Assembly (NCBI GenBank): GCA_030018275.1
Contig: JASEGB010000002.1
Coordinates: forward strand, 59,638 to 123,637
Length of the DNA: 64,000 nt
Reading direction: 5' to 3'
DNA from: Actinomycetota bacterium
GTDB taxonomy: Bacteria; Actinomycetota; Aquicultoria; Subteraquimicrobiales; Subteraquimicrobiaceae
The notes below the pieces were generated by a model. It worked only from the letters and a program-made list of their open reading frames with translations. It was not told the DNA's origin and did no database searches. Shown one piece after another: positions 19,681 to 45,260 of this stretch. Every line of letters begins with the position of its first letter. Positions within the stretch are counted from its first letter, which is position 1. The position numbers were made by a program, and so were the translations under genes.

Positions 19681-21228
19681 CTACGATCTACAGCGAGCCT
19701 CGTCCAGAATCTCTTGTCCCACTTTAAGGAGAGTAGAAACTCTTTGGGGACTGCTGGCTTCGGCGTAAATGCGAACGACCGCCTCCGTTCCAGATGGTCT
19801 GATCAGGAGCCAACTCTCATCGGCAAGGAGAAACTTGCACCCATCCATATTGTCGATGGTAACCACCTTAACTCCAGCCAATTCGCTGGGATTGAAAGTC
19901 TTTAAATAGTTAAGGAGATTTTCCCTTACAGTTGATGCCGTTTCCACACCATGTCTGCCGACAGGCCCGCCTGGAGCGAAGCCTCCCTTTGTGACCGGAC
20001 GGGCAGGCAGGTCCACCCGGTCATAATAAAAATAACCTATTCTCTTCATTAAATCATCCACCAATTCCTTGAGGGTCTTCCGGTGAGTGATCATGATTTC
20101 CACGAGAAGCAACCCAATTAAGATTCCATCCCTCTCCGGGATGTAATTCTTTATCCCAATGCCTCCGCTTTCCTCGCCCCCGATTAAAACATCGCGGGTC
20201 AAAATATGCTCGCATATGTATTTGAATCCAATGGGAGTTACATGTAGGGGCAGATTATACTTCCGCGATAAGATATCAATCATTTGAGTGGTGGAAACGG
20301 TCTTGACCACTTCGCCGCGCCATTTGCGCTGGTTAACCAGGTGCTCTAAAAGAAGTGCAAATATCTGGTGAGAGTCGATGAATGCTCCTGAAGGATCAAT
20401 GGCTCCCGTTCGATCCGCATCTCCATCCATCGCCAGACCTACATCGAAACCTCTCCTTTTGACCTCGCGACGAAGATCCTCGAGGTTCTCCGAGATGGGC
20501 TCGGGATTTATCCCCCCAAAGGTAGGATTTATCCCCTTATGGATTTCTACCACCTCGCAACCAAGCCTGGAAAGAGCTTCACTTAAGTATCCCTGCCCCG
20601 CTCCGTACATGGGATCGACAACCACCTTGAGTTGGAAGTTAGGAGTTGGGAGTTGGGGGAATAGGTTTTTGTCTAGGAGGGTGAGGATGTTGGAGAGGTA
20701 TGCTTCCTTGGGATCGAAAAAGCGCAGGCGATCTTCCTGGGTTGCTTCCTCGCCCCAGGCCCCTTTTCGGGGCAGAGAAATCTTGAGCGGTTTCTTACCC
20801 CGAGCTGAATTCCTTCGATAGCACTGCTCTATTTTCCCGGTGATCTCCGGAGTTGCGGAACCGCCGAAAGAAGCTTTAAACTTCAAACCATTGTACTGAG
20901 GAGGGTTATGGCTCGCCGTAATGAGAATGGCTCCATCCGCCCGTTTGTCCACAACGGCAAATGAGACCACGGGAGCGGGAGCAAAACTCTCAGTGAGTAA
21001 AACATCGAAGTCATTTGCCGCGGCAACGAGAGCCGCTTCCAAGGCAAACCTGTCCGAAAGAAACCTGGTATCATAACTGACAATTAATCTTGGCCGAGGG
21101 CTGATAGCTGAAGGCTGAAAGCTGATTTTAATGTAGTCGCATATGGCTTGAGAGACCCATCTCACGTTCTCGAAGGTGAAATCGTCCGCTATTATTCCTC
21201 TCCAGCCATCAGTGCCAAATCTAATCAT
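19681..21228 (-). CDS. Phosphomannomutase/phosphoglucomutase (alpha-D-phosphohexomutase)
   Basis: 515 aa. Active-site TASHNP, a metal-binding DGDADR-like loop and the phosphate-binding RPSGTE motif are present. It contains the second copy of the 40-bp repeat in-frame (PARPVTKGGFAPGGPVGRHG). Confidence 0.9.
   Translation of the reverse strand: MIRFGTDGWRGIIADDFTFENVRWVSQAICDYIKISFQPSAISPRPRLIVSYDTRFLSDRFALEAALVAAANDFDVLLTESFAPAPVVSFAVVDKRADGAILITASHNPPQYNGLKFKASFGGSATPEITGKIEQCYRRNSARGKKPLKISLPRKGAWGEEATQEDRLRFFDPKEAYLSNILTLLDKNLFPQLPTPNFQLKVVVDPMYGAGQGYLSEALSRLGCEVVEIHKGINPTFGGINPEPISENLEDLRREVKRRGFDVGLAMDGDADRTGAIDPSGAFIDSHQIFALLLEHLVNQRKWRGEVVKTVSTTQMIDILSRKYNLPLHVTPIGFKYICEHILTRDVLIGGEESGGIGIKNYIPERDGILIGLLLVEIMITHRKTLKELVDDLMKRIGYFYYDRVDLPARPVTKGGFAPGGPVGRHGVETASTVRENLLNYLKTFNPSELAGVKVVTIDNMDGCKFLLADESWLLIRPSGTEAVVRIYAEASSPQRVSTLLKVGQEILDEARCRS
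19965..20005. repeat. 40-bp repeat, copy 2, inside the phosphomannomutase CDS
   Basis: cccgcctggagcgaagcctccctttgtgaccggacgggcagg. Confidence 0.7.
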
Positions 21229-21241
21229 CTTCGTTCACCAT

Positions 21242-21262
21242 GGAATCGTTGACCGTTCACCG
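21242..21262. repeat. Heptamer pair (gttgacc gttcacc) just upstream of the phosphomannomutase start
   Basis: Minus strand reads GGTGAACGGTCAACG..GGTGAACGAAG ATG. Confidence 0.6.
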
Positions 21263-21392
21263 AAATATCCTTTAATGAATTCTTAAGAGCACTAATCATC
21301 ATAGCAAGTCTATTGCACTCTTCATAGAAATGTTTGTAATCTTCGGTGGTAATAAAAGTGAATTCCATTTCTCCTCAAGCTTTTATGATCTT

Positions 21393-21426
21393 CACTGTGA
21401 ACTGTGAACGGTGAACCGTGAATGAA
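21393..21426. repeat. Tandem heptamer array, copy C. It lies immediately 3' of the gmd stop.
   Basis: ctgtgaa ctgtgaa cggtgaa ccgtgaa. Confidence 0.75.
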
Positions 21427-21430
21427 GGTG

Positions 21431-23404
21431 TTAAACTCTTTTGCGCCAATAGTTTAGCAAGTCTTCCAGGGTCTTTTCGAAGGGGATTTCCGGTTCCCAG
21501 CCCGTGGCTTTCTTGAACTTAGTGGCATCTCCCGCCAAGATGGGAACATCCGAGGGACGCATGCGAGCGGGGTCTTGCCTTATCTCCACATCCACATCGC
21601 TCAATTTGAGCAGCATGTTGAGCATATCTGCAATCTTAACCGCCTTCCCCGATGCGATATTATACACCTCTCCAGGCTCACATTTTTCCAGCGCCAGCCA
21701 ATAAGCTCTTACCACATCTCGGACATCCGAGAAATCGCGTTTCGCTTCCAGATTTCCCACTTCAATTACGGGCTCTTTTAAGCCCTTTTCAATCTCCGCA
21801 ATCTGTTTAGCGAAGTTCGACGCCACAAAAACTTCTCCACGCCTTGGTCCCGTGTTATGAGCTAAAAGATTACCCACGCCCGCTTGAAACATTCCATCTT
21901 CTGTAGAAAAATCCCACACCTCCTCAGAATAATCTATTGGATTAAGAGATTTTATAATTCCATCTGGCTTTTGAAGATGTTTGCCCCAATTTTTATGAGC
22001 TTTTATATCTGAATTTAAATTTATAGAAATATATCCTTTCCTTTTATCTTCGAAATTAATATTAATTTCCTGTCCAGTAGTCTCTTTTATTAAATAACAC
22101 AATCCCGCGGCCAATATCCTTGACTTAGTCTTGAAATTTTTGAATTTATATTCACCATGTCCTTTCTTTAATCCATCTCCTTCATTATAGCCTTCAAGGA
22201 AAGCAAGTTTTGCTTCCTTTTGAGCGTTTAAGATACATTGGGGAACTTTTTTATTTCCATCAGAAGCATATACCTGTGGATATAACCACTTAGCAAATTT
22301 TCCAGGATTTCTTACAGATAATCTTAAACTACTCTTATTTTCTTGATAAAAACTATCTTTTCCAAAATGTTTAAGGAGAATTCTTTTTGTTTTATCTAAA
22401 AGAGTTTTATTAGTGTTATCAACTCTAACTTTCCCTACAGTTATGCATCCTTCTGCAACAAAAAATCCAAAAAACCAAGCTACCTCTTCATTCACATGCA
22501 TTATATTACTCGATGGATAATTAACAATAGCAACTTTATCCCCTATTTGAAGGTTTACAACTTCTTCCGGTTTCAAATCCTTACCAATAATAGAATGATT
22601 ATCTGTAACTTCTAATAGTCCCTTTTTAGTTAAAATTCTAATTAATTTATTATCGCGAATGGGATGGCAACTAATTTCTTTAAGTTTAACCCAATGATTA
22701 TTTGACCACACTGATAAATTGTATCTCCGTAAATTCCAAACTTTGACATCCCCTATAAACTTGCCTGATTTATATCCTCCGATTTTATATTTATTTCTCA
22801 TCTCATTAATGTATTTGATATCTATCAAACCTGAGGAATCGTCTCTAATCATTACTGGTGTCCACTTAGATACTGAGTGATTGAAAGCACGGGTTCGCAC
22901 GATGTGCATGCCATAGCTTCGATGATATTGGTATCCCAATAAATCCTGAGCTACCTTGCTCACCCCATAGGGACTCAGAGGCCTTAAGGGATTGGTCTCC
23001 CTTATGGGAATCTCATTTTCATAGACGAGACCATACTCCTCGCTGCTTCCAGCGAGCTGAACTCGAGGGTTAAGCTTCAGCTCGCGGATGGCTTCGAAGA
23101 GATTAACCTGACCAATGATATTTGTCACTAGGGTCTCAGCGGGTGCATGCCAGGAACTTGGTATGTACGATTGTGCTGCTAAATGAAAAATGTAATCGGG
23201 TTTGCTTTGCTCTAAAGCTTTAATTACCGAGGAGGCATCTCGAAGATCACAATCAATTAGCTTAATCTTGCTCCTGATGTGATCGATATTTTCCGTTCGA
23301 CTCCTCCACCTGATGGTCCCGAAAACTTCAGCGCCCTTTCCCAGGCAGTATTCGGCGAGATGACTTCCCACAAACCCCGTTATACCTGTGATGAGTACCT
23401 TCAC
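21431..23404 (-). CDS. gmd: GDP-mannose 4,6-dehydratase interrupted in-frame by a 341-aa LAGLIDADG intein
   Basis: The N-extein carries the SDR Rossmann fold GITGFVGSHL ... YGVSK ... RAFNH. The C-extein reads TGPRRGEVFV ... to the end. The exteins total about 316 aa, typical for Gmd. The canonical Gmd motif FNHESPRRGETF is split between H176 and T518. Confidence 0.9.
   Translation of the reverse strand: MKVLITGITGFVGSHLAEYCLGKGAEVFGTIRWRSRTENIDHIRSKIKLIDCDLRDASSVIKALEQSKPDYIFHLAAQSYIPSSWHAPAETLVTNIIGQVNLFEAIRELKLNPRVQLAGSSEEYGLVYENEIPIRETNPLRPLSPYGVSKVAQDLLGYQYHRSYGMHIVRTRAFNHSVSKWTPVMIRDDSSGLIDIKYINEMRNKYKIGGYKSGKFIGDVKVWNLRRYNLSVWSNNHWVKLKEISCHPIRDNKLIRILTKKGLLEVTDNHSIIGKDLKPEEVVNLQIGDKVAIVNYPSSNIMHVNEEVAWFFGFFVAEGCITVGKVRVDNTNKTLLDKTKRILLKHFGKDSFYQENKSSLRLSVRNPGKFAKWLYPQVYASDGNKKVPQCILNAQKEAKLAFLEGYNEGDGLKKGHGEYKFKNFKTKSRILAAGLCYLIKETTGQEININFEDKRKGYISINLNSDIKAHKNWGKHLQKPDGIIKSLNPIDYSEEVWDFSTEDGMFQAGVGNLLAHNTGPRRGEVFVASNFAKQIAEIEKGLKEPVIEVGNLEAKRDFSDVRDVVRAYWLALEKCEPGEVYNIASGKAVKIADMLNMLLKLSDVDVEIRQDPARMRPSDVPILAGDATKFKKATGWEPEIPFEKTLEDLLNYWRKRV
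21854..22876 (-). mobile_element. Intein (class 1) with a LAGLIDADG homing-endonuclease domain, inside gmd
   Basis: Ser1 follows the ...FNH extein. Block B is LEVTDNH. The two dodecapeptide motifs are FFGFFVAEGCI and FLEGYNEGDG. The C-terminal blocks are VWDFSTEDGMFQAGVGNLLAHN. The +1 extein residue is Thr. The region is visibly more AT-rich than the flanking gmd sequence. Confidence 0.85.
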
Positions 23405-23467
23405 CTTTCAACCTCCCAAATTTAAAATTTCATAAAAAATTACAGTTTTGGGTTGTTCAATCCGAAT

Positions 23468-23489
23468 AACAGGTCTAAAGACCTGTTTC
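23468..23489. repeat. Hairpin repeat aacaggtc taaa gacctgtt, family member 1
   Basis: Perfect 8-bp inverted repeat. The same core occurs at 31826-31845, 53369-53391 and 53470-53526. Confidence 0.7.
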
Positions 23490-23565
23490 TACTATTTTAA
23501 ATGAATGTAAAAATTGGATTTAAGGATTTATTATGCCTGGTAAATAAAGGTGTCGAGGTCTGACC

Positions 23566-24678
23566 CTAGAATTTGATTTTTGCTCTTTCAATCTTTGTAT
23601 CGGGCCAGATTCTCACCCCTCGTTTAAGATGGTTCTCATCCTCGATGATCATATTGTCTCCTAAAACGGCGGTCTCCGCCACGTGAACCTTCTTGCCCAG
23701 GCAAAGCCCTCTACCCAAAAGGCTATTCCTGACAACACTGGCTTCATCGATGTGGCAACCATCAAAGATTACGCATCTCTCAAGCATGGCCCCTGTTTGA
23801 ATCACGCAATTATTCCCTATCGTGGTATTACTAAAAATTGTAGCATTGGAGTGGATACGGCAGTTCTTTCCAATCACCGTGGGACCAAATATGGTGGCTT
23901 CCGGACCTATTTCCGTCCCCTCGCCAATCCAGACCCTAGGCTTAATCTCTCTCCCAGAGAATTCGAAGTCAAGCTTGCCATCCAAGATATCATGATGGGC
24001 TTGGAGATACTTTTCAGGAGTCCCGATATCCAGCCAGTAGGCGCCGGATGGAAATCCAAAAACCCTCTCGCCCTTCTCCAGCAGAGTAGGGAAGAAATCG
24101 CGCTCGAAGGAATAATTCTCACCCTTCGGTGCATACCTCAAAATTTCCGGTTCAAGCACGTAGGTTCCGGCATTGATCAGGTCCGTGGTTACTTCATCCC
24201 AGCTTGGCTTCTCCACGAAATTCAGAACTTGACCCGAAGTATCCAGGAGAACCAAGCCATACGCTGTGGGGTCTTCCACAGGAGTCAAGGCGATGGTCGC
24301 CATCGCTTTCTTCGCGTGATGGTATTCCATGAGTTGAGCGAGATTAAGATTTGTAACGATATCACCATTGAAAACGATGAAGGTTCCTTCCAAAAATCTC
24401 TCCACATTCTTGACGGCGCCACAAGTGCCTAGGGGTTTTTCCTCAGTCACATAGGTAAGCTTCACCTTCAGATGGCAACCATCAGCGAAATAAGATTCAA
24501 AACATTCAGGACGATAACTCGTGCTCAAGATGATATCGGTGATGTCGAATTGCTTAAGCAATCTTATAACGTGCTCTAAGAGTGGGATATTGACCAAAGG
24601 AAGCATGGGTTTAGGAATGGTGCAGGTGAGTGGTCTTAGGCGTGTTCCCTGCCCTCCAACCAGAATTACAGCTTTCAT
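23566..24678 (-). CDS. Mannose-1-phosphate guanylyltransferase-like NDP-sugar pyrophosphorylase (N-terminal nucleotidyltransferase plus C-terminal left-handed beta-helix)
   Basis: 370 aa. It has the signature motif ILVGGQGTRLRPLT and C-terminal hexapeptide repeats. Confidence 0.85.
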   Translation of the reverse strand: MKAVILVGGQGTRLRPLTCTIPKPMLPLVNIPLLEHVIRLLKQFDITDIILSTSYRPECFESYFADGCHLKVKLTYVTEEKPLGTCGAVKNVERFLEGTFIVFNGDIVTNLNLAQLMEYHHAKKAMATIALTPVEDPTAYGLVLLDTSGQVLNFVEKPSWDEVTTDLINAGTYVLEPEILRYAPKGENYSFERDFFPTLLEKGERVFGFPSGAYWLDIGTPEKYLQAHHDILDGKLDFEFSGREIKPRVWIGEGTEIGPEATIFGPTVIGKNCRIHSNATIFSNTTIGNNCVIQTGAMLERCVIFDGCHIDEASVVRNSLLGRGLCLGKKVHVAETAVLGDNMIIEDENHLKRGVRIWPDTKIERAKIKF

Positions 24679-28538: not shown

Positions 28539-28632
28539 CTCTTTTATATCAACATCAATATATATAACACTTGAGACTTTGTCAACACATTAGGCATCAG
28601 TCAACAGCCAGCTGAATTTGCCGGGAGCCTCG

Positions 28633-30018
28633 CTAAATTAAAGACTCGCCTTCTAAACCTTGTGCTTCCATAAATAAGCTAGTTTCGGGTCTTTGAATTT
28701 TCTCCAGAGAAATGCCTTTAACTCCGATTCCCGTATAAACGAAACCGAATTCCGTTAAAAGCTGAGAATCTAAACAATTTCTGGTATCGAATATAATTGG
28801 TTTCTTGAGCAACGATTTGATTCTTTCAAAATCAAGCCATCTGAATTCATCCCACTCGGTCAACAAAACGAGCATATCACTGTCCTTAGCTACCTCATAG
28901 GCATTAGTGGCGAACTCGACGCCCTTTAAAACCCGCCCGGCATTTTCCATAGCCGCAGGGTCGTAAGCTTTCACAAGGGCACATTCCGTTTGGAGATGAT
29001 TTATGATATCTATCGCCGGTGCGTCCCTAACATCATCGGTATTTGGTTTGAAGGATAAACCTAATATACCAATGCACTTATCTTTAAGATCACCTAAAAG
29101 TTGTCGGATCTTCACCACCACTAACCTCTTTTGATCTTCATTAACCTTTAAAACCTCCTTAAGCAGGTTGAATTCGTATCCACAATCTTCAGCAATTTTA
29201 ATGAACGTTTTACAGTCCTTGGGCAAACACGAACCTCCCCAGCCCGGTCCAGCCTTGAGGAATTCAAAACTGATCCTCTTATCATATCCCATCCCTGTAG
29301 CTACATCCTTTACATTTGCCCCCACAGTATCGCATAGATTCGCTATGAAGTTTATGAAAGAAACCTTGGTCGCCAAAAAGGCATTGCAAGCATACTTTAT
29401 TATCTCTGCACTGATCTGGTCGGTAATGAGAATGGGAGCTTTAAGGGGGCGATAAAGCTCGGTCATAATTTCGGCAGCTTTTTGACTATCCGTGCCTATG
29501 ATAATTCTGTCTGGATTGAGGAAATCTTTTACCGCCGAGCCTTCGCGCAAAAATTCAGGATTGGAAACCACATCAAACTTGTGAGGATAAACCATATTTT
29601 CAAGGATTATCCTTTTAACCAGCTCAGCTGAGCCCACAGGTACTGTGCTCTTATTGGCAATTATAGTATATTTATTAATCCCTTTAGCTATGCCCTTTGC
29701 GGCAGACTCAACATGGGATAAATCCACACTTTTTTCATTGAATGGAGTTCCAACCGCGATGAAAACAATATCGGATTCACTCACACCTTCTCCAACATCC
29801 ATTGAAAAACTCAATGTATTTCTCTTATAATTCTTTTCCACGATTTTGCTCAGCCCTGGCTCATGAACAGGAATTACACCATTGCACAAACTTATTATTT
29901 TGGAGCCATCGATATCCACACAAACAGCGTCGTGACCAATATCAGCCAAGCAAGCCCCCATAGTCAATCCAACATATCCGGTCCCTATAATACAAACTCT
30001 CAATGTTCTCCCCTCCAA
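28633..30018 (-). CDS. ugd: UDP-glucose 6-dehydrogenase / nucleotide-sugar dehydrogenase
   Basis: 461 aa. N-terminal NAD motif GTGYVGL and the catalytic Cys region GGSCLPKD. Confidence 0.9.
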   Translation of the reverse strand: MEGRTLRVCIIGTGYVGLTMGACLADIGHDAVCVDIDGSKIISLCNGVIPVHEPGLSKIVEKNYKRNTLSFSMDVGEGVSESDIVFIAVGTPFNEKSVDLSHVESAAKGIAKGINKYTIIANKSTVPVGSAELVKRIILENMVYPHKFDVVSNPEFLREGSAVKDFLNPDRIIIGTDSQKAAEIMTELYRPLKAPILITDQISAEIIKYACNAFLATKVSFINFIANLCDTVGANVKDVATGMGYDKRISFEFLKAGPGWGGSCLPKDCKTFIKIAEDCGYEFNLLKEVLKVNEDQKRLVVVKIRQLLGDLKDKCIGILGLSFKPNTDDVRDAPAIDIINHLQTECALVKAYDPAAMENAGRVLKGVEFATNAYEVAKDSDMLVLLTEWDEFRWLDFERIKSLLKKPIIFDTRNCLDSQLLTEFGFVYTGIGVKGISLEKIQRPETSLFMEAQGLEGESLI

Positions 30019-43712: not shown

Positions 43713-44096
43713 TTGGTGAGTCTAAGATTGAGAGCTAAAAGGAATTCCAGTAAATGCTTTGATGGTCCTGCGATTTTTGCTATCATGGAAGCTGCCTCCA
43801 GAAGGTGGATTGTTGGTTGCTATCTATATTCACTTTTCACTTTCTGGAGGTTTTCCACATCAGTGGTTTTGTTCCTTTTAGCTAATTTTTTGCCAAACTA
43901 CAGTGCTATAAATAAACAAATAATTTATACAAAAATTATGGTCTTGGCTTTGGTGATGAATATTATATTAAACCTTTTGCTTATTCCTAAATACTCCTAT
44001 ATTGGAGCAAGTGTAGCTGCAGTTATCCCTCAATTTTTACAATCCCTACTGTTATTTTTATTGGTAAAAAACTTTTATAAAAATGCAATTTATTAA
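43713..44096 (+). pseudogene. Wzx-type flippase C-terminal fragment
   Basis: 127 aa. Only the last 3 to 4 TM helices are present (GASVAAVIPQFLQSLLLF). No N-terminal part. Confidence 0.5.
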
Positions 44097-44718
44097 GATT
44101 CTCAAATCACTTTGTAGACATTTCTTTCCTAGATTATTTGAATATTTAAGAAAAGAACTTTCCGATTGTAATACAGTTTTGGATTTGGGTTGTGGCTATA
44201 ATTCTCCTATTCAATATTGTAATATTCCTTTTTCAATTGGAGTTGAAAAATTTGAACCCTATCTCAAAGAAAGCAAAGAGAAAAAAATTCATAATCAATA
44301 TATAAAAGCTGATATTACAAAAATAGAATTTAAACCAAAATCATTTGATGCTGTAATAGCCATTGATGTGTTAGAGCATTTATCTAAGGAAGAAGGTTAT
44401 GAGCTATTAAAAAGAATGGAAAAATGGGCAAGAAAGAAGATTATTATCTTTACACCAAATGGATATGTATATCAAGATGACTATGATAATAATCCTCTTC
44501 AAGAACATAAATCCGGGTGGAATGCTGAGGAATTAAAGAAATTAGGATTTAAAATTTTTGGAGTCAATGGTTGGAAAAGACTCAGAGGATACAGGGGAAA
44601 AATAAAATATAAACCAATTCTTTTTTGGAGGATAATTTCGGATTTGACTCAAAAGATAACCTATCGTTTTCCAAATTTGGCATTTCAATTATTCGCTATT
44701 AAAAATCAAAGAAGATAG
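44083..44718 (+). CDS. Class I SAM-dependent methyltransferase
   Basis: 211 aa. Motif I is VLDLGCGYNS. Post-I is AIDVLEHL. Confidence 0.8.
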   Translation: MQFIKILKSLCRHFFPRLFEYLRKELSDCNTVLDLGCGYNSPIQYCNIPFSIGVEKFEPYLKESKEKKIHNQYIKADITKIEFKPKSFDAVIAIDVLEHLSKEEGYELLKRMEKWARKKIIIFTPNGYVYQDDYDNNPLQEHKSGWNAEELKKLGFKIFGVNGWKRLRGYRGKIKYKPILFWRIISDLTQKITYRFPNLAFQLFAIKNQRR

Positions 44719-44732
44719 ATGAAGCTATTATT

Positions 44733-45260
44733 ATGCGTGAATTAATTAAACAATTTGTCAAAATCATTGCTGAGACTTTACCTATCTCCGAACCTGTTTT
44801 TGAGTTTGGGGCTCTTCAGGTGTCAGGCCAGGAAGGTTTTGCAGATCTTCGCCCTTTTTTCCTAGGTAAGAAATATGTTGGTTGTGATATACGAGAGGGT
44901 CCAGGCGTAGACCGAATTTTGAATCTCCATCACATAGAACTTCCTTCAGAGTCAGTTGGGACAGTTTTAATTCTCGATACACTCGAACATGTAGAATTTC
45001 CAAGAAAGGCAATGGAAGAAGTTTACAGAATACTTAAACCAAATGGTTTTACCGTGATTAGTTCCGTTATGAATTTTCCCATCCACGATTGTCCATCTGA
45101 TTATTGGCGTTTTACCCCGCAAGCTTTTAAGAGCATTCTAAAGCTTTTTAATTTTTCATTCGTTGATTTCGCTGGCGATGAACACTTTCCTCACACTGTT
45201 GTGGGATTAGGTTTTAAGGGTTTGCCCCCTAAAGATTTTGATAAATTTAAAAAAGTTTAA
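44733..45260 (+). CDS. Class I SAM-dependent methyltransferase
   Basis: 175 aa. It has the VGCDIREGPG and ILDTLEHVEFP motifs. Confidence 0.75.
   Translation: MRELIKQFVKIIAETLPISEPVFEFGALQVSGQEGFADLRPFFLGKKYVGCDIREGPGVDRILNLHHIELPSESVGTVLILDTLEHVEFPRKAMEEVYRILKPNGFTVISSVMNFPIHDCPSDYWRFTPQAFKSILKLFNFSFVDFAGDEHFPHTVVGLGFKGLPPKDFDKFKKV

Follow-up and report, generated by a model that had tools for sequence, protein, structure and literature searches.

Inteins concentrate in proteins of replication, repair and nucleotide metabolism, and the UDP-glucose/GDP-mannose dehydrogenase (UDP-GlcDH) inteins of archaea are the only ones in a sugar-nucleotide enzyme listed in the survey of Novikova et al. 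(2016; PMC4760082). For Thermosynechococcus, a full-length gmd intein has been mentioned in passing (PMC9403480); this was the one mention of a gmd intein found in the searchable literature, in which no description of the site FNH/TGPRRGE was found (slashes within motifs mark intein boundaries). Described here is an intein that splits this motif in a gene of the GDP-mannose 4,6-dehydratase (Gmd) family of an Actinomycetota bacterium (GenBank assembly GCA_030018275.1). The gene lies in a 64 000-nucleotide stretch of contig JASEGB010000002.1 (positions 59 638 to 123 637 of the forward strand), which was analysed as a whole and is referred to as the window; coordinates are those of the window (Table 1) unless another locus is named.

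The closest solved systems are the archaeal inteins PI-PkoII (KOD Pol-2; PDB entry 2cw7), TliVMA and PhoVMA (PDB entries 7qss, 7qst and 7qsu) and PI-PfuI (PDB entry 1dq3), in which, as in the intein of the window, a two-motif LAGLIDADG domain interrupts the Hint splicing domain. In sequence and fold alike they match the window intein best, yet share only 14–19% identity with it in structural alignments. Their hosts are a polymerase or an ATPase, whereas the host here is a nucleotide-sugar short-chain dehydrogenase/reductase (SDR); they come from Thermococcales, whereas the element of the window occurs in bacteria of many phyla. The window intein is also smaller (341 residues), and no additional DNA-recognition region like that of PI-SceI is visible in its model. 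Its sequence relatives include PolB inteins at YGD/S...HN/TDS, which have the same Ser1/Thr+1 chemistry and occupy what we take to be the site type of PI-PkoII. The UDP-GlcDH inteins (PMC4760082) resemble it in having a nucleotide-sugar enzyme as host, but this enzyme belongs to an unrelated family and fold and is interrupted at a different site. InBase is said to list an Ndse intein of Trichodesmium, perhaps in a nucleotide-sugar epimerase; it was met in no paper of the searchable literature, and nothing here is built on it. A UDP-glucose/GDP-mannose dehydrogenase homologue is encoded in the window (28633–30018, minus strand); it has the normal length of 461 residues and is intein-free. The element described here is ordinary in its architecture and expected chemistry, and its host class is unusual when set against the published bias.

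Anatomy and fold of the intein

The host gene is a single unbroken open reading frame (ORF) of 657 codons on the minus strand in the ORF listing of the window. An earlier note, made from the letters of the window, had described this ORF as a Gmd carrying an insert at residues 177–517, with Ser1, a block B TDNH, two LAGLIDADG motifs, a terminal HN and Thr at +1, that splits FNH/TGPRRGE. Each of these features was found, the insert maps exactly to 21854..22876 and the precision of the split was confirmed both in the sequence and in the family alignment. The insert starts with SVSKWTP (Ser1) and ends with LLAHN, which is followed by Thr518; the interrupted motif, RAFNH/TGPRRGE, is nearly invariant across the family, and the coding sequence of the spliced junction reads ...GCTTTCAATCAC/ACGGGACCAAGGCGT.... 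The two LAGLIDADG helices end in acidic residues (...FFVAE318G and ...YNEGD410G), the conserved NKK/NKR endonuclease motif is kept and block F retains Asp498, with Gly504 and Gln507 at the positions of the two family-consensus His residues.

Profile searches with residues 177–517, proposed in the earlier note as a check, gave a divided result. Pfam PF14528 (LAGLIDADG_3) was matched above threshold (37.6 bits against a cut-off of 22.5, E 2.7e-9), and in NCBIfam the insert matched models of intein-bearing proteins (RNA polymerase A'', RFC, V-ATPase A, Tes and GyrA) in their intein stretches; PF14890 (Intein_splicing), which matches many homologs, gave no match to the window copy at E ≤ 0.1. Sequence matches in the PDB were PI-PkoII and the Thermococcus/Pyrococcus VMA inteins. 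An AlphaFold2 model of the intein, built on 15 aligned family members (mean pLDDT 88.7, pTM 0.90), consists of an all-beta N-terminal part, two central alpha/beta repeats and a beta C-terminal part. The central domain has the order helix, two strands, helix, two strands, helix, twice over, which is the LAGLIDADG repeat fold. In Foldseek searches against the PDB the top matches were all endonuclease-containing inteins, namely TliVMA (7qsu, E 3e-21), PhoVMA, PI-PkoII (2cw7), PI-PfuI (1dq3) and PI-SceI, with E values from 3e-21 to 1e-9 for the top solved inteins; the Hint part was matched by the mini-inteins 5o9i and 4e2t, and the central domain by I-DmoI with a TM-score (target) of 0.6–0.68. Core residues, profile matches and fold together bear out the complete class-1 intein that the earlier note had proposed: residues 177–517 are an intein of class 1 whose Hint splicing domain encloses a two-motif LAGLIDADG homing endonuclease. 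Judged by its sequence, it very probably is, or recently was, competent to splice.

The sharp drop in GC content at both boundaries would also be expected if the insert were a chimeric join with AT-rich foreign DNA or mobile DNA. A lineage-specific accessory domain, an in-frame transposon and an assembly chimera were considered. Such readings are extremely improbable and are effectively refuted by the family alignment, the Foldseek matches, the repeat search and an independent assembly. Fold and motifs match solved inteins, the boundaries fall at the exact codons that restore a conserved motif, and the architecture recurs in more than 100 homologs from other samples. No terminal inverted repeats and no target duplications were found at the insert boundaries, on which ground a transposon or insertion-sequence origin was rejected. 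The same 657-residue protein is encoded in an independent Logan assembly (P0001) with one substitution (Q286K), and an assembly artefact is ruled out because of this. On the other strand within the insert there is no ORF of 80 residues or more.

Table 1. Features of the intein-bearing gene and its immediate neighbours
Feature	Position	Strand	Description
Precursor ORF	21431..23404	-	657 aa, 74.7 kDa, GTG start, stop included; Gmd-family extended SDR split by intein
N-extein	22877..23404	-	Residues 1-176; Rossmann part with GxxGxxG, catalytic GSSEEYG and YGVSK; ends ...RAFNH
Intein	21854..22876	-	Residues 177-517; 341 aa, 39.0 kDa, pI 9.45; GC 31.3%
Hint splicing domain, N-terminal part	22517..22876	-	Intein residues 1-120, all beta; Ser1 (block A SVSKWTPV) and block B
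Block B TDNH	22595..22606	-	Residues 267-270 (Thr267, His270)
LAGLIDADG homing-endonuclease domain	21980..22516	-	Intein residues about 121-299; two alpha/beta repeats
LAGLIDADG motif 1, VAWFFGFFVAEGC	22445..22483	-	Residues 308-320; acidic residue Glu318
LAGLIDADG motif 2, KLAFLEGYNEGDG	22172..22210	-	Residues 399-411; acidic residue Asp410
Hint domain, C-terminal part, blocks F and G (EVWDFSTEDGMFQAGVGNLLAHN)	21854..21979	-	Asp498, His516 and Asn517 present
C-extein	21431..21853	-	Residues 518-657 and stop; Thr+1 first (TGPRRGEVF...); substrate-binding SDR part
ManC/GMPPB-type sugar-1-phosphate nucleotidyltransferase	23566..24678	-	Upstream neighbour
Phosphomannomutase/phosphoglucomutase	19681..21228	-	Downstream neighbour

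Host enzyme and the empty site of its nearest relative

With the intein removed, the extein comprises 316 residues and is matched by PF16363 (GDP_Man_Dehyd) in one stretch (positions 1–331 of 332, E 4e-90). It aligns to the solved enzymes 2pk3 and 7us5 without a gap at the junction, and the exteins do reconstitute a colinear Gmd-family enzyme. The catalytic residues are present (GSSEEYG at 119–125, Tyr146 and Lys150). The label gmd used in the earlier note holds at the level of the family and is imprecise below it. Against the NCBIfam gmd equivalog TIGR01472, whose cut-off is 415 bits, the spliced extein reaches 197.6 bits; its best solved relative is the GDP-4-dehydro-6-deoxy-D-mannose reductase (Rmd) of Aneurinibacillus thermoaerophilus (2pk3, E 4e-89), followed by the GDP-heptose 4,6-dehydratase of Campylobacter (7us5, E 1.5e-70) and, at about 1e-50, the classical Gmds. 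With this score and this best solved match, the host is a putative dehydratase.

An Rmd as host would agree with this best PDB match and with the names given to intein-less homologs by JGI (GDP-4-dehydro-6-deoxy-D-mannose reductase), whereas NCBI names them GDP-mannose 4,6-dehydratase. The loop motif is unlike those of solved Rmds: the window has GPRRGE, the 7us5 dehydratase GPRRSD and canonical Gmds SPRRG, and the Rmds 2pk3 and 6x3b have GPGQ. The gene lies in a mannose-activation operon (PGI, PMM, the host gene, ManC and two GT2 genes), and the 64 kb of the window hold neither a separate Gmd for an Rmd to follow nor any second SDR able to serve as Gmd or to replace the host gene. Because of the GPRRGE loop, the Ser-Glu and Tyr-x-x-x-Lys residues and the PMM/ManC context without a second SDR, the host is assigned as a short-form Gmd-family GDP-sugar dehydratase of putative activity.

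The closest relative of the extein (P0121) comes from an Actinomycetota metagenome-assembled genome (MAG); it is 92% identical, likewise 316 residues long and without an intein, and its locus (L080, GCA_002339355.1) is syntenic with the window. The comparison with related genomes lacking the insert, which the earlier note had suggested, thus yields an uninterrupted site in a protein of the same length. Over the spliced coding sequence the two genes are 88.3% identical. At the insertion point the relative has FNH-E-G-A-RRGE where the window has FNH-T-G-P-RRGE, and it is without the Thr nucleophile needed for splicing; the L080 allele reads ...AATCAC/GAAGGAGCAAGG.... The +1 position in 120 intein-less homologs is Thr in 77, Glu in 34, Ser in six and Cys in one. 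A co-conversion tract at the junction was considered and rejected: ACGGGACCA (T-G-P) in the window and GAAGGAGCA (E-G-A) in L080 differ at four of nine nucleotides, and 20 other 9-nt windows of the gene have at least five differences. The nearest inteins are 65–72% identical as protein and about 70–71% as DNA, and sit in exteins that are 59–65% identical to that of the window.

The insert has a GC content of 31.3%, the exteins have 47.7 and 49.9% and the whole window 42.2%; the third-codon-position GC content (GC3) is 22% in the insert and 50 and 55% in the exteins; the profile falls exactly at both insert boundaries. Horizontal acquisition, which the earlier note had proposed, is upheld: a horizontal gain of the intein in the lineage of the window is well supported by sequence comparison, because the 92%-identical syntenic relative is empty, the nearest inteins sit in exteins of 59–65% identity and the GC3 gap is wide. 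The earlier note had argued from the AT-richness itself. The GC and GC3 gaps are real, but as a sign of transfer they carry less weight, since the intein is AT-richer than the exteins in most host genomes examined (GC fractions of 0.33 vs 0.47, 0.39 vs 0.57 and 0.61 vs 0.67); low GC is thus in part a trait of the intein family.

Other AT-rich stretches of the window lie in a broad region of lower GC at about 28–55 kb, with a minimum near 43.7–44.7 kb. ORFs at 28600–55000 have 36–41% GC, compared with 45–50% in the remainder, the minimum being near 43751–44773; one ORF (44083–44718; GC 28.5%, GC3 20%) is as AT-rich as the intein. The region may be a horizontally variable surface-glycan gene island. 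In L080 a 109-residue GIY-YIG ORF (L080 5126–5455) lies just upstream of the Gmd-like gene, and a DUF4258 gene and a 77-residue gene (L080 6604–7148), possibly a toxin–antitoxin pair at a guess, lie just downstream; neither has a counterpart in the corresponding spacers of the window (23405–23565 and 21229–21430, respectively). An Rfam scan of the window found no RNA genes, and hence no rRNA for taxonomy; from its sequence the window was placed by the syntenic Actinomycetota MAG.

Inteins in the Gmd loop of other lineages

A search with the whole precursor returned at least 120 clusters (90% identity) with 82–100% query coverage and 50–68% identity, 117 of which, full-length homologs of 640–700 residues, were aligned. 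The insert occupies the identical site in all 117. Position 1 is Ser in 115 and Cys in two, block B Thr and His are invariant, HN is present throughout and the +1 residue is Thr in 110 and Ser in seven; the acidic residue of motif 1 (Glu318 in the window) is Glu in 111 and that of motif 2 (Asp410) is Asp in 114. A scan of GTDB species-representative genomes placed an intein at this site in 20 of them, from about ten phyla, including Rokuibacteriota/Methylomirabilota, Fervidibacter and other Armatimonadota, Binatia, Limnocylindria, Acidimicrobiia, Syntrophaceae and Desulfobacteraceae (Desulfobacterota), Omnitrophica (Omnitrophota), Nealsonbacteria, an unclassified bacterium MAG and an unclassified archaeon MAG. 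These inteins of other phyla share the insertion site and block residues and are allelic to the element of the window. They are 44–72% identical to it, in exteins that are only 47–74% identical, and most keep the two block-F His residues that the window copy lacks. None comes from the lineage of the window itself, whose nearest relatives are intein-free.

The suggestion of the earlier note that the insertion site might be rare or undescribed is contradicted by these counts, by at least 120 clusters of bona fide Gmds that carry a homologous intein one residue further downstream, by the Thermosynechococcus gmd intein (PMC9403480) and by one JGI record that is already named 'GDP-D-mannose dehydratase/intein/homing endonuclease'. 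The element is a new and largely undescribed intein; it is common in sequence databases and represents neither a rare nor a novel type of system. Its annotation is an issue in itself, as NCBI lists the precursors of about 660 residues simply as 'GDP-mannose 4,6-dehydratase' or 'hypothetical protein'; in NCBIfam no intein-aware model for a Gmd-type host was matched.

The mean pairwise identity in the family is 65% for intein and extein alike, pairwise identities of the two correlate (r = 0.87) and the Hint and endonuclease parts have means of 66 and 65%. Because of this correlation, the equal means and an endonuclease as conserved as the splicing domain, the alignment suggests that purifying selection acts on the element as a whole and that descent within clades is mostly vertical, with transfers now and then. 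The covariation would also fit long vertical co-inheritance of an intein that still splices but whose endonuclease is inactive, a fixed passenger that is no longer mobile. This is possible, if rather doubtful. The nearest intein DNA is only 70–71% identical, so that no recent donor is visible, and decay does occur in the family, the acidic residue of motif 1 being lost in six of the 117 homologs. The window copy, on the other hand, keeps Glu318, Asp410 and the NKK/NKR motif, and the endonuclease part is not less conserved in the manner of a decaying domain. Presence and absence are sporadic, down to an empty relative with a 92%-identical extein, and a GC3 so far from that of the host points to gain rather than to ancient residence in the lineage. 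An endonuclease still capable of homing remains the favoured reading.

The same-site intein was also seen in the Gmd-like gene of four IMG/VR contigs classified there as viral (L082, L083, L084 and L089; 24–219 kb), with an intein GC content 8–18 points below that of the extein in each. Their flanks encode methyltransferases, E1 dehydrogenase/transketolase-like proteins, another SDR and one HNH endonuclease; within the 7-kb loci, no virion genes appeared. L094 (ENA ERZ15184980 NODE_260, a 13.8-kb locus), which carries P0004, among the nearest intein alleles, consists of dense, short, co-directional ORFs without Pfam matches, apart from GtrA and a GtrB-like GT2, and has no PHROG hallmark match. 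GenBank phages yielded only a 27%-identical relative of the intein and plasmids none. The idea of a phage vector is conjectural, given flanks of sugar-modification genes with one HNH gene, no PHROG hallmark and no close copy in a phage or plasmid.

An exhaustive search with the intein alone gave 1475 representative clusters (50% identity) at E ≤ 1e-3. Among the best 150 of these, 46 have Gmd-like exteins, many of them canonical Gmds with the intein one residue downstream (FNHE/C...HN/SPRRG, compared with FNH/S...HN/TGPRRG in the window). One such Gmd, when spliced, passes TIGR01472 (445.6 bits, cut-off 415), which the host in the window does not (197.6 bits); its intein is 28% identical to that of the window end to end (E 2e-46). 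A search seeded with this Gmd returned at least 120 clusters, and all 120 examined have the insert at the FNHE/S site. Hosts of this neighbouring site (P0265, P0409–P0527) are Chloroflexota and cyanobacteria, for example Anaerolinea (MBE2233159.1) and the cultured Synechocystis salina LEGE 06155, and the Thermosynechococcus gmd intein (PMC9403480) probably belongs with them. The canonical-Gmd inteins interrupt the same FNH-x-x-P-R-R-G loop of a homologous enzyme and have the same architecture and a similar size (about 340–350 residues); they differ in lying one residue downstream, in having Cys at position 1 in 114 of 120 clusters and in having Ser at +1.

Related Ser1 inteins (block A SVPxYTP) were observed in GT2 glycosyltransferases (P0291 and P0388, at ...VD/S...HN/TGSTD), in S8 subtilases (Peptidase_S8; P0253 and P0284) at the catalytic Asp motif (...VLD/S...HN/TG), with two matched intein stretches in P0253, and in PolB (P0376 and P0366, loci L022/L023) at motif C (YGD/S...HN/TDS). 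A protein from an Armatimonadota MAG (P0029, locus L010, JBBIJA010000034) carries two inteins, the usual one at FNH/S...HN/SGPRR and a second of about 467 residues (residues about 122–588) at AGS/SVTGDTP...LLHN/SEEYG, within the catalytic Ser-Glu motif; the centre of the latter holds the helix–turn–helix domains HTH_23, HTH_29 and Sigma70_r4_2. Besides the two adjacent sites in the loop, the Gmd family thus has a third at which an intein was seen.

Predicted splicing, homing and significance

The splicing steps proposed for the window intein follow established intein chemistry. A precursor of 74.7 kDa would be translated first. An N–O acyl shift at Ser177, aided by Thr267 and His270 of block B, would be followed by transesterification, in which Thr518 would attack the resulting ester. 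Asn517 would then cyclize to a succinimide with the help of His516, releasing the 39-kDa intein, and an O–N shift would form a native His176–Thr518 bond in an active enzyme of 35.7 kDa. The free intein, a basic protein of 39.0 kDa, would act as a site-specific endonuclease that cuts intein-less alleles at the FNH/TGPRRG coding sequence, and a cut empty allele would be repaired with a copy of the intein (homing). The conserved FNH...PRRG loop presumably lies at the nucleotide-sugar site in the Gmd-type SDR family, and because the insert sits in this loop the precursor should be inactive until spliced.

Several points weigh against a splicing-competent element. Splicing and DNA cleavage by the window intein are predicted from its sequence. 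The conserved Asp and His of block F are auxiliary residues of class-1 inteins that are not universal. Block F has both His residues in 100 of the 117 family members, and the Gly504/Gln507 pair is common to only one other; these replacements could slow Asn cyclization. An all-oxygen nucleophile pair (Ser1 and Thr+1) is generally less reactive than Cys. The loss of both block-F His residues and the missing PF14890 match would also be consistent with a remnant that is dead for splicing, in which case either the gene is inactivated or a 75-kDa protein with a disrupted active site is made. Such a remnant is very unlikely. Ser1, Thr and His of block B, the block-F Asp, the His-Asn pair and Thr+1 are all intact; close relatives (P0002–P0007), in which the block-F positions are variable, keep all else. 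The 1023 nt of AT-rich DNA contain neither a frameshift nor a stop, the exteins are still 92% identical to the intein-less orthologue with catalytic residues intact, and the window encodes no SDR paralogue that could substitute in the mannose operon. An intein that splices, or did so until recently, remains by far the better account.

A further reading sees the Gmd-loop inteins not as mere parasites but as long kept for use as conditional post-translational switches, responding for example to redox state, temperature or substrate. It would explain why the intein, including its endonuclease, is conserved like its host, why it sits in the nucleotide-sugar-binding loop, why two adjacent codons are occupied in two Gmd subfamilies and why relatives are found in GT2 motifs. 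We regard it as a long shot. If true, 6-deoxyhexose surface-glycan synthesis would be controlled by the switch at its first committed step.

Knowledge of how inteins work is unchanged by the finding. Protein engineers could find a use for a compact Ser1/Thr+1 intein of which many natural variants exist. The intein clade has colonized nucleotide-sugar and glycan enzymes in uncultured lineages, at two adjacent sites and a third, catalytic-motif site of the Gmd family and in GT2 glycosyltransferases, as well as PolB and subtilases. The picture of inteins as elements of replication and repair proteins (PMC4760082) was drawn from cultured genomes, and metagenomic data may reveal a second intein niche.

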